The notes beneath the pieces were generated by a model. The model was not told the DNA's origin. It worked only from the letters and a program-made list of their open reading frames with translations, and ran no database searches. This document shows, piece after piece, positions 33,721-39,403 of a DNA stretch of 64,000 nt; within the stretch, counting starts at the first letter, position 1, and the number at the start of each line of letters is the position of its first letter. The DNA is from an uncultured Myxococcales bacterium (lineage in GTDB: Bacteria > Myxococcota_A > Polyangia > Haliangiales > Haliangiaceae): assembly GCA_942492525.1 (NCBI GenBank), contig CALOFI010000005.1, positions 1-64,000 of the forward strand, written 5' to 3'. The position numbers and the translations under genes are program-made.

Positions 33721-35551
33721 CGGTGACGTCCACCGCGTCGAGCACCGCGCCCTCGCCGCGCAGGTACGCGGCGACCCCGGGCGCCGCCAGCGTGGCGTCG
33801 CTGATCGCGATCTGCCAGGCCTCCGCGGCGGCCTGCAGCTTGGCCGCGAGGTTCACCGCGTTGCCGAAGTAGTCGACGTTGGCGTTGAGCCGCACGGCGA
33901 TGCACGGGCCGGTGTTGAGCGAGACCCGCAGGCGGATCGCGTCGGCGCCGCGGCCCGGTGGGAAGGCCGCGTGGATCGCCCGCGCCGCGCGCACCGCGTC
34001 GAGCGGGTCGTTGAACGCGGCCATCGCGGCGTCGCCGATCGTCTTGACGACCGCGCCGCGGTGTGCCGCGATCACCGCGAAGATCTCGTCGAAGTGGCGC
34101 TTGACCTCGACGAACGCGGCCGGGTCGCCGCGGGTCGCGTACATCGCGGTCGAGCCGACCACGTCGGTGAAGAGGATCGTCTGCTCGCCGACCGCGAGCT
34201 GGATGTCGGCGCCCAGGTACTCGGCGCTGAACAGATCGCGGAAGTCCTGGAAGCTGAGCAGCCGGCCCGGGCGCAGCGCGACGTCCGACCACGCCACCGT
34301 CTCGACCACGAAGATCTGCGCGGCGTCGGCGTCGTTGATCAGCTGCACGCGCGAGCCGGGGCCGACCGGCCCGGGCGCGGGCGCGGTCCGCGCCGACCAG
34401 CGCAGCGTCACGACCGCGGCGTCGGGCTCGACCTCGACGGTCGCGTGGTCGGGCGCGCCGCGCAGGCGCAGCCGGTAGGTGCCGGGGTCGGCGGGCAGCT
34501 CGATCTCGACGGTCTGGCCCGCCGGCACCGTGCGCTGCGCCTGGATGTGCGGCTTGGTGGCGGGCTCGGCGCTGCAGAAGGTCCGCTTGCCGATGTCGCG
34601 GATCGACGAGTGGACGTGGAACGCGACCTCGATCGCCTCCTCGGAGTCGGTGCCGAAGTCGAGATCGCAGACGTCGCAGTGGCCGCGCGCCGGGAGGTCG
34701 CCGAGGCGGCCGGTCGACTCGCGCACGCCGCGACAGTGCGGGCACACCACGTCCCACGTCAGCTCGAACAGGCCCGCGCGGGTGGCGTGCAGGCACACCC
34801 GCAGCAGCTCGTCCTCGTTGACGTCCCACGCGCGCGCGCGCTCGCGGACCCGGATGCGGTCGAGATCGAGATCGTCGGCGCGCCGGACCCAGTCGACCAG
34901 CTGGTGGACGACCGCGGCGTCCTGGCCGGCGTCGATCAGCTGGGCGGTGATCGCGTCCAGCCGGCCGCGCGCCTCGGGCCGCAGCTCCGGCGCCGGCGGG
35001 TGGTAGATCGCGGCCGCGGCGACGCCGGCGCGCGCGAGGTCGGCGGCGAGCCGCGGCACCACGCGCTGGTAGGCGCGGCGCAGGCGCGCGAACGACAGCC
35101 GCATCGGCAGCTCGAAGATGCGGCCGCGCGAGACCACGCCCCAGTAGACGTGCAGCCGGGTGCCGGCGCCGATCGGCTCGAGGACGTGGACGCCGTACAG
35201 CGCGCGCATGCCGCCGCGGCGGTAGAACCGGGTCAGCTCGAACCAGCGCCCGGCCTGCCAGTTCCACGGCACCTCCTCCCACTCGTGGCGCACGCCGCTG
35301 TAGCGGGCCCGTCCCCAGCGCACGCCGTCGCGCTCCTCGAACTGCATCGGTGGGTTGCCGAGCGCCCGGTTGAGCCGCGAGACGTCCGCGATCGCCGGCC
35401 ACAGCCGCTCGGGCGCGAGGTCGACGTCGATCGACCACAGCCACTCGAGCCGTCGCGCGTCGGCCCACGCGCGCGGCCACGGGTGCGCGGCGAGCAGCGA
35501 CGCGACGTCGACCGCGGCGACGGCCGCCAGCGCGGTGGACTCCGGCGCCAT
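33665..35551 (-). CDS. Class III adenylate/guanylate cyclase with large N-terminal SRPBCC-like/unknown domain
   Basis: C-terminal CYC domain ILFTDVVGSTAMYATRGD...VVKTIGDAAMAAF...NTGPCIAVRLNANVDYFGNAVNLAAKLQ. The start at MAPESTAL (35551) overlaps the stop of the upstream kinase gene by 1 nt. Confidence 0.7.
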   Translation of the reverse strand: MAPESTALAAVAAVDVASLLAAHPWPRAWADARRLEWLWSIDVDLAPERLWPAIADVSRLNRALGNPPMQFEERDGVRWGRARYSGVRHEWEEVPWNWQAGRWFELTRFYRRGGMRALYGVHVLEPIGAGTRLHVYWGVVSRGRIFELPMRLSFARLRRAYQRVVPRLAADLARAGVAAAAIYHPPAPELRPEARGRLDAITAQLIDAGQDAAVVHQLVDWVRRADDLDLDRIRVRERARAWDVNEDELLRVCLHATRAGLFELTWDVVCPHCRGVRESTGRLGDLPARGHCDVCDLDFGTDSEEAIEVAFHVHSSIRDIGKRTFCSAEPATKPHIQAQRTVPAGQTVEIELPADPGTYRLRLRGAPDHATVEVEPDAAVVTLRWSARTAPAPGPVGPGSRVQLINDADAAQIFVVETVAWSDVALRPGRLLSFQDFRDLFSAEYLGADIQLAVGEQTILFTDVVGSTAMYATRGDPAAFVEVKRHFDEIFAVIAAHRGAVVKTIGDAAMAAFNDPLDAVRAARAIHAAFPPGRGADAIRLRVSLNTGPCIAVRLNANVDYFGNAVNLAAKLQAAAEAWQIAISDATLAAPGVAAYLRGEGAVLDAVDVTVKGVGELVARRWTVAREA

Positions 35552-37880: not shown

Positions 37881-39403
37881 CGGAGCGCCACCACCGCGAC
37901 GTCGGTCTTGCCGGTGGCGAGCGCCACCTCGGCGGCGGCGAAGTGCGCCAGCACGGACTCGCTGACACCCGCGGTGATGGCGCGCGCCGCGGTGGGGTCG
38001 CCGGCCGCGAGCAGCGCCGCGGCGCGCCCGAGCACGGCGTCGGGACCGCCGCGCGCGAACGCCGCCGCGGCCGCCGCCGGATCGCCCGCCGCCACCGCGA
38101 GCCGGGCGCGCTGGAGCGCGGCCTGCGCGTCTGGCCCGGCGGTCTCCCAGGCATCGAGCCGGCGCGCCGCCGCCGCTTGATCGCCGGCGCGCACCGCGAG
38201 CTCGGTGGCCAGCCGATGCGCCTCGTGGAGGTTCGCGGCGAGCGCCCGGTCGACGACGGCGGTGAGCCGCACCACCTCGGCGTCGTCGAGCTCGCGCACC
38301 GCGATCAGCGCGAGCGCGCGCCGCACCTCGACGCCGGCCTCCGCGGCGCGCAGCCCCAGCGCCGCCGCGGCGCGCGCGTCGACCACGGCGACCTGCTCGG
38401 CGACGTCCACGAAGCTGCGTTCGAGATCGTCCGGTAGCTCGCCGGGCGCCAGGCTGGCCACGAACAGCATCGTCGCCGGCGCGGTCGCGGGCAGCTGGCG
38501 CAGCGCGGCGTCGCGCGGCTTGCTCTCGCGACGCAGGCGGGCCAGCTGCGCGCGCGCCAGCGTCAACCACGGATGAGCTCCCCCGGCCTTCAGCTCCGCC
38601 GCGACCGCCGCGGAGTCCGACAGCGCGATCGCGACGAGCGCGCGGGCGCCGCGCGCGGTGGCATCGTCACCCTGGGCCAGGCCGACCACGTCGGCGGGCG
38701 TGCCCGCGGCGAGCGCCGCCCGCAAGCGATCCTCGGTCCCGATGGAGGGGTCGCTCCAGAGCGCGCGGCCCGCCTCCTGAGCCGACGGGACCTTCAGCGA
38801 GATCAACGCGTCGGCGCCGTCGAGCGCGGCGATCGCGTCGGCGGTGCGGCCCGAGCGCCAGGCGGAGGTTGCGCGCACGAAGCGGCGTAGCTGACCGACC
38901 GAGACCGCGGGCACCCGGCCCGGCGGATCGCCCGTTGCGCGCGCGATGCCCGCGACCAGCGCGGTGAGCAAGCCGCCCAGATCGCCGTCCGCGGCGTTCG
39001 CGACGACGTGCTCGACCGGGTCGCCACGGCCGTCGAAGACATGGATCGTGGCGTGGACGCGCGGCCCCTGCCGGACCAGCTCGCCGAGCAACAGCCAGCG
39101 CGCGTCGAGCGCGCGCGCGATCTCGGCGACCCGTTCGACCGGCACGATGACACGATCGCCGTCGGAGCCGACCGCGACCGCGAGCTCGCGCAGCGACACG
39201 ACCGGGCGATCAGGATGGTCGAGCGCCGCCCGCAGCAACAACGTCGCGGCGCCCGCTTCGTCGCGCAGCCCGGGCTCGGCGTACAGCTCCACGACCACGG
39301 TGCGCACCGGCGCGGCGTGGCCGACGCCGGCGAACACGAGCGCCAGCACGAGCAGGCCGCCGATCCCGGCGGCCGCGGCTCGCGCGGCGATGCTTGCCCC
39401 CAT
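37880..39403 (-). CDS. Signal-peptide + periplasmic TPR/Ala-rich domain (upstream part of the same frameshifted receptor-like kinase gene)
   Basis: MGASIAARAAAAGIGGLLVLALVFAGVGHA looks like a signal peptide. About 500 aa of helical-repeat sequence follow. The frame degenerates to Arg/Gly junk after about 37880, while the kinase frame becomes sensible there. This implies a -1/+1 frameshift near 37900. Confidence 0.5.

Follow-up and report, generated by a model that had tools for sequence, protein, structure and literature searches.

A probable type-I receptor-like Ser/Thr kinase gene, split by a one-base frameshift, in an uncultured Myxococcales bacterium

Two long overlapping open reading frames (ORFs) lie on the minus strand of a stretch of 64,000 nucleotides from an uncultured Myxococcales bacterium (GenBank assembly GCA_942492525.1, contig CALOFI010000005.1, positions 1 to 64,000; the whole stretch is hereafter called the window), immediately ahead of a gene for a class III cyclase. 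The locus raises the question of whether these ORFs encode two proteins or a single kinase whose sensor precedes the kinase domain, and whether such a kinase belongs together with the cyclase. An earlier note, made from the letters alone, had proposed one gene with the domain order of eukaryotic receptor kinases and a coupled pair of kinase and cyclase. The analysis presented here indicates that 39403..35551 is probably one gene for a single-pass type-I receptor-like Ser/Thr kinase of an uncharacterised myxobacterial family, that its frameshift is likely to be an artefact and that the cyclase is not its evolutionary partner.

One gene in two reading frames

The two ORFs, 39403..37379 (674 aa) and 38154..35551 (867 aa), overlap by 776 nt and are the halves of a single gene for a protein of 1283 aa. 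The protein-like part consists of codons 1-542 of the first ORF and approximately the last 741 codons of the second, and the remainder of both is arginine-rich, out-of-frame text. The GC content of the region is ~73-80%, and the shift itself lies in a stretch of 80% GC. A frame plot of the GC content at third codon positions (GC3) places the change of the coding frame from one ORF to the other at ~37800. As revealed by a codon-by-codon reading, the junction falls inside a canonical 34-residue tetratricopeptide repeat (TPR), AEAQRRLGRALELRGDRDGAARA-xxx-ALRLDPDG, where three residues, or 9 nt, are required between A23 and A27 and the DNA has 10 nt (Table 1). When base 37777 is skipped, an uninterrupted ORF results, with no other stop. 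A Pfam TPR_2 match at residues 518-550 of the bridged protein, to which all residue numbers refer, straddles the junction. The two ORFs, the switch in GC3 and the bridged ORF bear out the single gene of the earlier note, and the shift, which had been put near 37900, is actually located ~120 nt away. The source record has one entry for each half, P0001 (674 aa) and P0009 (605 aa, with the start GTG 37368); the annotation should join these two proteins or mark them as a single gene with a frameshift.

Comparison with orthologous sequences makes the reading as a single polypeptide well supported. Two proteins, P0002 (1245 aa) and P0003 (1280 aa), are collinear with the bridged protein from end to end, with identities of 50% and 43%, and both are continuous across the position of the shift. 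Screening one genome per species yielded 11 more loci (L003-L013), each of them in Kofleriaceae, Myxococcales or 'Deltaproteobacteria' metagenome-assembled genomes (MAGs). Nine of the ten loci with enough sequence have one ORF open across the whole available contig, six of these ORFs being complete at 1252-1299 aa (lengths of maximal ORFs) and three still open at the contig end. The exception is the nearest orthologue, L003 of the Kofleriaceae MAG HK-STAS-MYXO-12, which has a frameshift of its own, situated in the Ala/Pro linker before the kinase (L003:10850-11130). In the alignment of the shift region all orthologues are continuous. The earlier note had named split orthologous genes as the outcome that would speak against it; apart from the frameshifted L003, all readable orthologues have the same order in one continuous gene.

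Residues 543-1009 were also compared with 1.84 billion cluster representatives in an exhaustive HMMER search, which returned 105 clusters. About 49 of the 105 representatives measure at least 1085 aa and end with the kinase, ~46 of them being additional to the orthologues above, and in most of the 49 a single hydrophobic segment, at 570-750, passes the threshold that was applied; the shorter representatives look like contig-end fragments. A word-indexed protein search with alignment of residues 575-959 returned only P0009 and added no orthologues. As far as seen here, the family is limited to the Kofleriaceae/Myxococcales (Myxococcota).

Table 1. Features of the putative receptor-kinase gene and of the adjoining genes in the window
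Feature	Residues	Coordinates	Strand	Basis or remarks
Whole receptor-kinase gene		35551..39403	-	1283 codons and stop after skipping one base near 37777
Sec-type signal peptide	1-30	39314..39403	-	MGASIAARAAAAGIGGLLVLALVFAGVGHA↓AP; hydropathy
Periplasmic alpha/beta domain 1 (predicted)	31-157	38933..39313	-	TolB N-terminal / LpoB-like fold
All-alpha TPR-like periplasmic solenoid (predicted), then connecting helix	169-~560	37612..38899	-	Holds the frameshift
Frameshift site		37774..37783	-	10 nt GAGCGCGACC against 9 nt expected, one extra base; orthologues all continuous here
Membrane-proximal periplasmic alpha/beta domain 2 (predicted)	609-722	37237..37578	-	Fold of LpoB C-terminal domain
Single transmembrane helix	724-746	37165..37233	-	LVLLGTFITIVIAFGLLWAL, then RGKG
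Cytoplasmic beta-rich region (predicted), two beta-sandwiches	749-932	36607..37158	-	Second sandwich transthyretin-like / carboxypeptidase-regulatory-like
Helix with RERRLA and low-complexity Ala/Pro linker	933-945 and 946-1019	36346..36606	-	Linker predicted disordered
Hanks-type (PknB-like) Ser/Thr kinase domain	1025-1272	35587..36330	-	Pfam Pkinase, E 1.5e-54
Cyclase gene		33665..35551	-	SRPBCC, DUF5939 and Guanylate_cyc (class III); Pfam
OPT oligopeptide transporter gene		39481..41301	-	Upstream, 77 nt before the kinase start

Domain architecture and known kinases

The signal peptide has a hydrophobic core at residues 9-27, followed by GHA↓A, according to the hydropathy profile. No lipobox Cys follows it, and anchoring as a lipoprotein was rejected on this ground. 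The orthologues have clear Sec signals with an AxA↓GR cleavage context; a heuristic scored a signal peptide in at least 21 of 39 family representatives, several of the others being cut at the start. Besides this signal-peptide-like N-terminal segment, hydropathy gives one internal transmembrane (TM) segment at 727-745, and exactly one internal TM was found in 35 of the 39 representatives. The mean number of K+R across the representatives is 2.6 in the 15 residues after the TM, compared with 1.15 in the 15 residues before it, and no hydrophobic segment occurs between the beta-rich region and the kinase. Because of the cleavable signal peptide, the single TM, the K+R bias after it and the absence of a later hydrophobic segment, a type-I single-pass topology is predicted, in which the TolB-N/TPR/LpoB part would be periplasmic and the beta-sandwiches and the kinase cytoplasmic. 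Such a topology fits the structural relatives, which are all periplasmic, and a kinase that needs ATP.

The predicted ectodomain of ~695 aa comprises three modules, namely two alpha/beta domains and, between them, a TPR solenoid of ~375 aa that continues in a long helix as far as residue 597. AlphaFold2 modelled residues 31-542 from a 40-sequence alignment with a predicted local distance difference test score (pLDDT) of 96.7 and a predicted template modelling score (pTM) of 0.94; for residues 543-959, where the model contains a long helix at 566-597, pLDDT was 89.8. The modelled solenoid (169-541) structurally matches consensus TPRs (CTPR), MamA, OGT, PilF, LpoP and Tom71, with a match probability of 1.00 for CTPR, OGT and Tom71, and in the model it is a TPR solenoid of 34-residue repeats. 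Pfam TPR matches in this protein remain under the gathering score (TPR_16, 27.4 against 32.7), and TPR_19 was detected in 19 of the 39 relatives. The helical-repeat domain of about 500 aa supposed in the earlier note survives as a predicted periplasmic TPR solenoid, within an ectodomain that is longer and has three modules.

Fold matching recovered the LpoB / TolB-N-like alpha/beta domain. The two alpha/beta domains share the same order of secondary-structure elements and give a weak profile alignment (hhalign E 1e-4, 91 columns). Their similarity to LpoB, the N-terminal domain of TolB, LpoP and PelC is one of fold, with a sequence identity of only 10-12%. These four are lipoproteins or soluble periplasmic proteins and not parts of kinases.

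The cytoplasmic region includes a seven-stranded prealbumin-like sandwich with the transthyretin/CarboxypepD_reg fold. PEGA domains are usually assigned to the transthyretin-like / carboxypeptidase-regulatory-like structural class. The PEGA profile (PF08308) matched neither this protein at E<=0.1 nor the 39 relatives at E<=0.01, and CarboxypepD_reg matched in 4 of the 39. The PEGA-like beta-sandwiches that had been proposed therefore hold at the level of fold, as CarboxypepD_reg-like domains with a predicted cytoplasmic position after the TM. Aligned to each other, the two sandwiches demonstrate no relationship (hhalign, probability 2%). The RERRLA motif of the helix that follows is invariant, and in the linker pLDDT is ~50 beyond model residue 403.

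The kinase domain scores 185.6 bits with PF00069 against a cut-off of 31.7. All catalytic motifs are present (GEGAMG, VAIK with K1054, the alphaC Glu E1073, HRDIKPAN, DFG and GTPLYMAPE) and are at least 90% conserved across the 39 relatives. Judged by its motifs, the kinase is catalytically complete and of the PknB-type RD class, and it is predicted to be active. The best solved relatives found by a PDB search are PknB of M. tuberculosis (3e-52), PknA, StkP and PknE. A eukaryotic origin of the kinase was considered and rejected, PknB being by far the best match; the best eukaryotic PDB matches reach ~120 bits, compared with 181 bits for PknB. Hydropathy and Pfam thus confirm the signal peptide, the single TM helix and the C-terminal Hanks-type kinase described before.

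The placement of the kinase at the C-terminus is unusual. Among 62 complete non-orthologous kinase ORFs obtained in the same scan (from L014-L082), the kinase starts within ~80 residues of the N-terminus in 54 and ends within 40 residues of the C-terminus in only two. The bacterial Ser/Thr kinase (bSTK) Atlas preprint (10.1101/2025.01.12.632604) gives a kinase with a C-terminal TM as the commonest architecture, in 25 of 42 families, and a TM N-terminal to the kinase in CCM1 alone. Both sources agree with the expectation that most bacterial Hanks-type kinases have an N-terminal kinase domain. TPR is the most frequent accessory domain of bacterial Ser/Thr kinases (10.1101/2025.01.12.632604; PMC11032199), and TPR and WD40 arrays sit C-terminally in them (PMC11032199). 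The order sensor-TM-kinase is rare in bacteria, yet it has precedent. CCM1 has in common with the protein from the window the TM before the kinase; by its description in the preprint (10.1101/2025.01.12.632604) it is centred on Chloroflexota/Cyanobacteria and has an N-terminal TM or FHA, sometimes a C-terminal PQQ, and no TolB-N/TPR/LpoB ectodomain is mentioned. A literature search found no published description of this particular kinase family, and a search for a bacterial Hanks receptor with the N-terminus outside and the C-terminus inside returned plant and eukaryotic papers only. One of the two ORFs with a C-terminal kinase (L014:971-1843) has ~261 aa before a kinase domain that is 54% identical to that of the window; this ORF is perhaps related to the family, in a short or truncated form.

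The PASTA kinases PknB, PrkC and StkP and the TPR- or PEGA-tailed kinases of myxobacteria have the same type of kinase, with an RD activation loop containing Thr. These kinases are likewise single-pass membrane proteins with an extracytoplasmic sensor and a disordered juxtamembrane linker, but the order is reversed: kinase-TM-sensor in them, and signal peptide-sensor-TM-kinase, as predicted, here. Another difference is the transthyretin-like sandwiches, predicted to be cytoplasmic, between the TM and the kinase. Three TPR kinases that the first search brought up (P0004, P0005 and P0007) have the usual order kinase-TM-TPR, with an N-terminal kinase and the TM at 383-426.

The layout from signal peptide to C-terminal kinase is the same as in eukaryotic type-I receptor kinases, including plant receptor-like kinases, TGF-beta receptors and receptor tyrosine kinases, and the putative working mode, oligomerisation driven by a ligand and trans-phosphorylation, would be the same too. 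Unlike in those receptors, the kinase domain is bacterial, and the folds of the ectodomain (TolB-N/LpoB-like and TPR) are bacterial periplasmic ones. Because the kinase is of PknB type and the ectodomain folds are those of bacterial periplasmic proteins, the likeness is a convergent domain order with no shared descent. The eukaryotic receptor-kinase order suggested at the outset is correct as a description of the layout and does not extend to origin.

The frameshift and the neighbouring genes

The one-base shift is most likely an assembly or sequencing indel, and the real gene is probably intact, because a second frame-split gene, a split peptidase and a chimeric join occur in the same window; the 80% GC of the stretch around the shift also counts for an artefact. 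The frame-split gene (41426-42590, minus strand), which encodes HD and AAA_33 (polynucleotide-kinase-like) domains and adjoins an RNA ligase gene (42614-43426), lies ~4 kb upstream of the kinase gene. Its frame changes at ~41700, in the middle of AAA_33 (HLRAGQ / FAWNATNLS), and it is intact as a single gene in the relatives L083 and L084 (395 and 419 aa). Positions 1 to ~8800 of the window have a GC content of 38-52%, against 72-80% elsewhere, no ORF of at least 250 aa and no codon periodicity. In the ORF 8605..9840 (minus strand), an AAA_16 ATPase of high GC content (residues 16-155) runs into the N-terminal part of an M20 peptidase of low GC content (256-341), whose C-terminal part is encoded by another ORF, 7824..8414. 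The arrangement has the appearance of a chimeric join of 74%-GC and 47%-GC DNA at ~9135, plus at least one more gene break.

Coding sequences for prepilin-like proteins (GFTLIELM, GFSLIELL) and for a broken repeat protein are also present in the low-GC DNA, and Rfam gave no match anywhere in the window. An automatic scan for GC3/GC2 frame transitions (GC2 being the GC content at second codon positions) flagged the shift at 41700 and missed that at 37777, since Ala-rich TPR codons blur the signal; the count of frameshifts in the window is a lower bound. Given the chimeric join and the two other split genes, the contig is to be treated with caution.

Several points weigh against the reading of an intact type-I receptor-like kinase. 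The charges flanking the TM of this particular protein discriminate weakly, and the sole basis for topology, ligand and activation mechanism is the sequence together with structure prediction. L003, the nearest orthologue, has an independent frameshift in its linker, which could mean that the gene of this clade is decaying; besides, the gene stands without the PEGA-kinase partner that adjoins eight other loci, which fits a loss of function. The last two points would suit a real frameshift, that is, a gene that moved beside the cyclase, was recently inactivated and is now a young pseudogene, and so would the clean 3.9-kb indel, made up of this gene, that sets the locus apart from the close relative L083. 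However, a single base is the sole lesion: each half stays open in its frame, and GC3 periodicity and the residues conserved in the family, every kinase motif included, are kept on both sides of it. The other frame-split gene, intact in relatives, the split peptidase and the chimeric join also point to assembly errors. A young pseudogene is considered unlikely, and an artefact considerably more probable than a real frameshift.

The proposed coupling with the cyclase relied on the position of the genes. The stop codon TGA of the kinase and the ATG of the cyclase do share one base, as had been noticed (ACGTGATGGCG; TGATG, read as ACG TGA TGG). This overlap implies co-transcription and possibly translational coupling, and the OPT, kinase and cyclase genes are all on the same strand. 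Co-transcription of the kinase with its neighbours is likely here, and a functional connection, for instance phosphorylation of the cyclase by the kinase or a common input, might be expected. Yet no cyclase was found in the available sequence of any of the 13 orthologous kinase loci, and no receptor kinase adjoins the cyclase orthologue in the three cyclase loci examined (L083, L084 and L085). The cyclase family is also far more conserved and widespread than the kinase family: 963 matches at E<=1e-20 were obtained among the scored candidates, and the 120 listed matches are 52-82% identical. The MAG with the nearest kinase orthologue, L003, has its cyclase gene on a different contig (L084), right after HD/AAA_33.

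The closest relative of the cyclase, P0113 (82% identity), is encoded in L083, where the gene order is methyltransferase, RNA ligase, HD/AAA_33, OPT, cyclase and a convergent NAGPA, as in the window minus the kinase. At the DNA level, with 81-85% identity, positions 41279..39409 of the window correspond to 5094..6968 of L083, and positions 35533..33668 to 7025..8890. Between these blocks, the 3875 nt holding the kinase gene (39409-35534) stand against 56 nt in L083 (6969-7024), which leaves OPT and the cyclase directly adjacent there. Just ahead of its ATG the kinase gene has TATGATGGCTCCCGATGG, similar to the TATGATGCCGGGCGATGG that precedes the ATG of the cyclase in L083, and GATGG is present at both edges of the indel. 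By this alignment the indel comprises the kinase gene precisely from start to stop and is located at the start codon of the cyclase; the simplest reading is that the gene came in between OPT and the cyclase in this lineage alone. A conserved kinase-cyclase operon, or a module of the kinase with cAMP/cGMP signalling, is not supported by these comparisons. As the adjacency is conserved from neither side, functional coupling of the pair appears decidedly improbable.

It could further be supposed that the two halves function as separate genes, one (39403..37379) for a TPR protein that is secreted and the other for a membrane kinase starting at GTG 37368 or at 37575/37569/37566, as the two entries of the source record and the GTG codons downstream of the shift would allow. 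The last ~130 aa of the first ORF are, however, Arg-rich, out of frame and in the wrong GC3 phase; the start assigned to P0009 would halve the second LpoB-like domain, and the kinase half, lacking a signal peptide, would still need its N-terminal domain exported. With every orthologue continuous at the position of the shift, a pair of genes is very improbable. Programmed +1 ribosomal frameshifting, for which it can only be said that such a shift would restore the frame of the sequence as it is, deserves practically no credence, given that all orthologues are in frame at this position, so that the shift is not conserved, and that it falls inside a structural repeat with no known shift motif or stimulatory element seen, although none was looked for.

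Proposed mode of action and meaning

With a single receptor-like kinase as the preferred reading, the best available clue to its function comes from the loci of the orthologues. In 8 of the 13 (L004-L009, L011 and L013), a conventional Hanks kinase is encoded immediately upstream on the same strand, ~2.2-3.3 kb from the receptor-kinase orthologue. These upstream kinases are orthologous, with 58-93% identity to one another, and it is in them that true PEGA domains were found. No such kinase occurs beside the gene of the window or in L001, L002 and L003. The pair of oppositely oriented membrane kinases is the clue in question, and the two may form a module with opposite polarities.

Five more Hanks kinase domains, 32-40% identical to that of the receptor-like kinase, were found in the 64 kb, at 20517-21353 (plus strand), 30144-30893, 45742-46515, 57397-58206 and 63326-63817 (all minus strand). 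They are typical of the expanded kinome of myxobacteria.

The folds of the ectodomain are those of the periplasmic envelope proteins LpoB, TolB, PelC, LpoP, PilF and NlpI, and for this reason we infer that it serves as a scaffold of protein-protein interactions, probably binding an envelope protein or complex and not a small molecule. Once a partner is bound, the oligomeric state or the orientation of the receptor would change by way of the single TM and the rigid sandwiches on the cytoplasmic side. The kinase domains on their flexible tethers would then be brought together and undergo trans-autophosphorylation on the conserved activation-loop Thr residues of RKTEIRGTP, after which cytoplasmic substrates would be phosphorylated, possibly including the partner PEGA kinase where it is present. 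In this the protein would work on the same principle as the receptor kinases of eukaryotes and as PknB, from which it differs by the reversed domain order.

A broader proposal can be put forward tentatively, as something that may well prove wrong. The ~100 clusters might represent an undescribed class of bacterial type-I receptor kinases, in which myxobacteria would have invented the eukaryotic receptor-kinase layout independently, and whose TolB-N/LpoB-like and TPR ectodomain would monitor a protein machine of the cell envelope and not a small ligand. In most genomes the receptor would act in a two-kinase module with the oppositely oriented PEGA kinase encoded upstream, as a heteromeric pair loosely resembling the type I and type II TGF-beta receptors.

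A well-populated family with the reverse order shows that bacteria themselves evolved a eukaryote-like layout, by rearranging domains around a kinase of PknB type. Such a family lets one ask whether signal transmission through a single TM works alike in either polarity. The envelope-binding folds (LpoB, TolB and TPR), together with the conserved pairing with a PEGA kinase, point to possible envelope partners and possible cross-phosphorylation.

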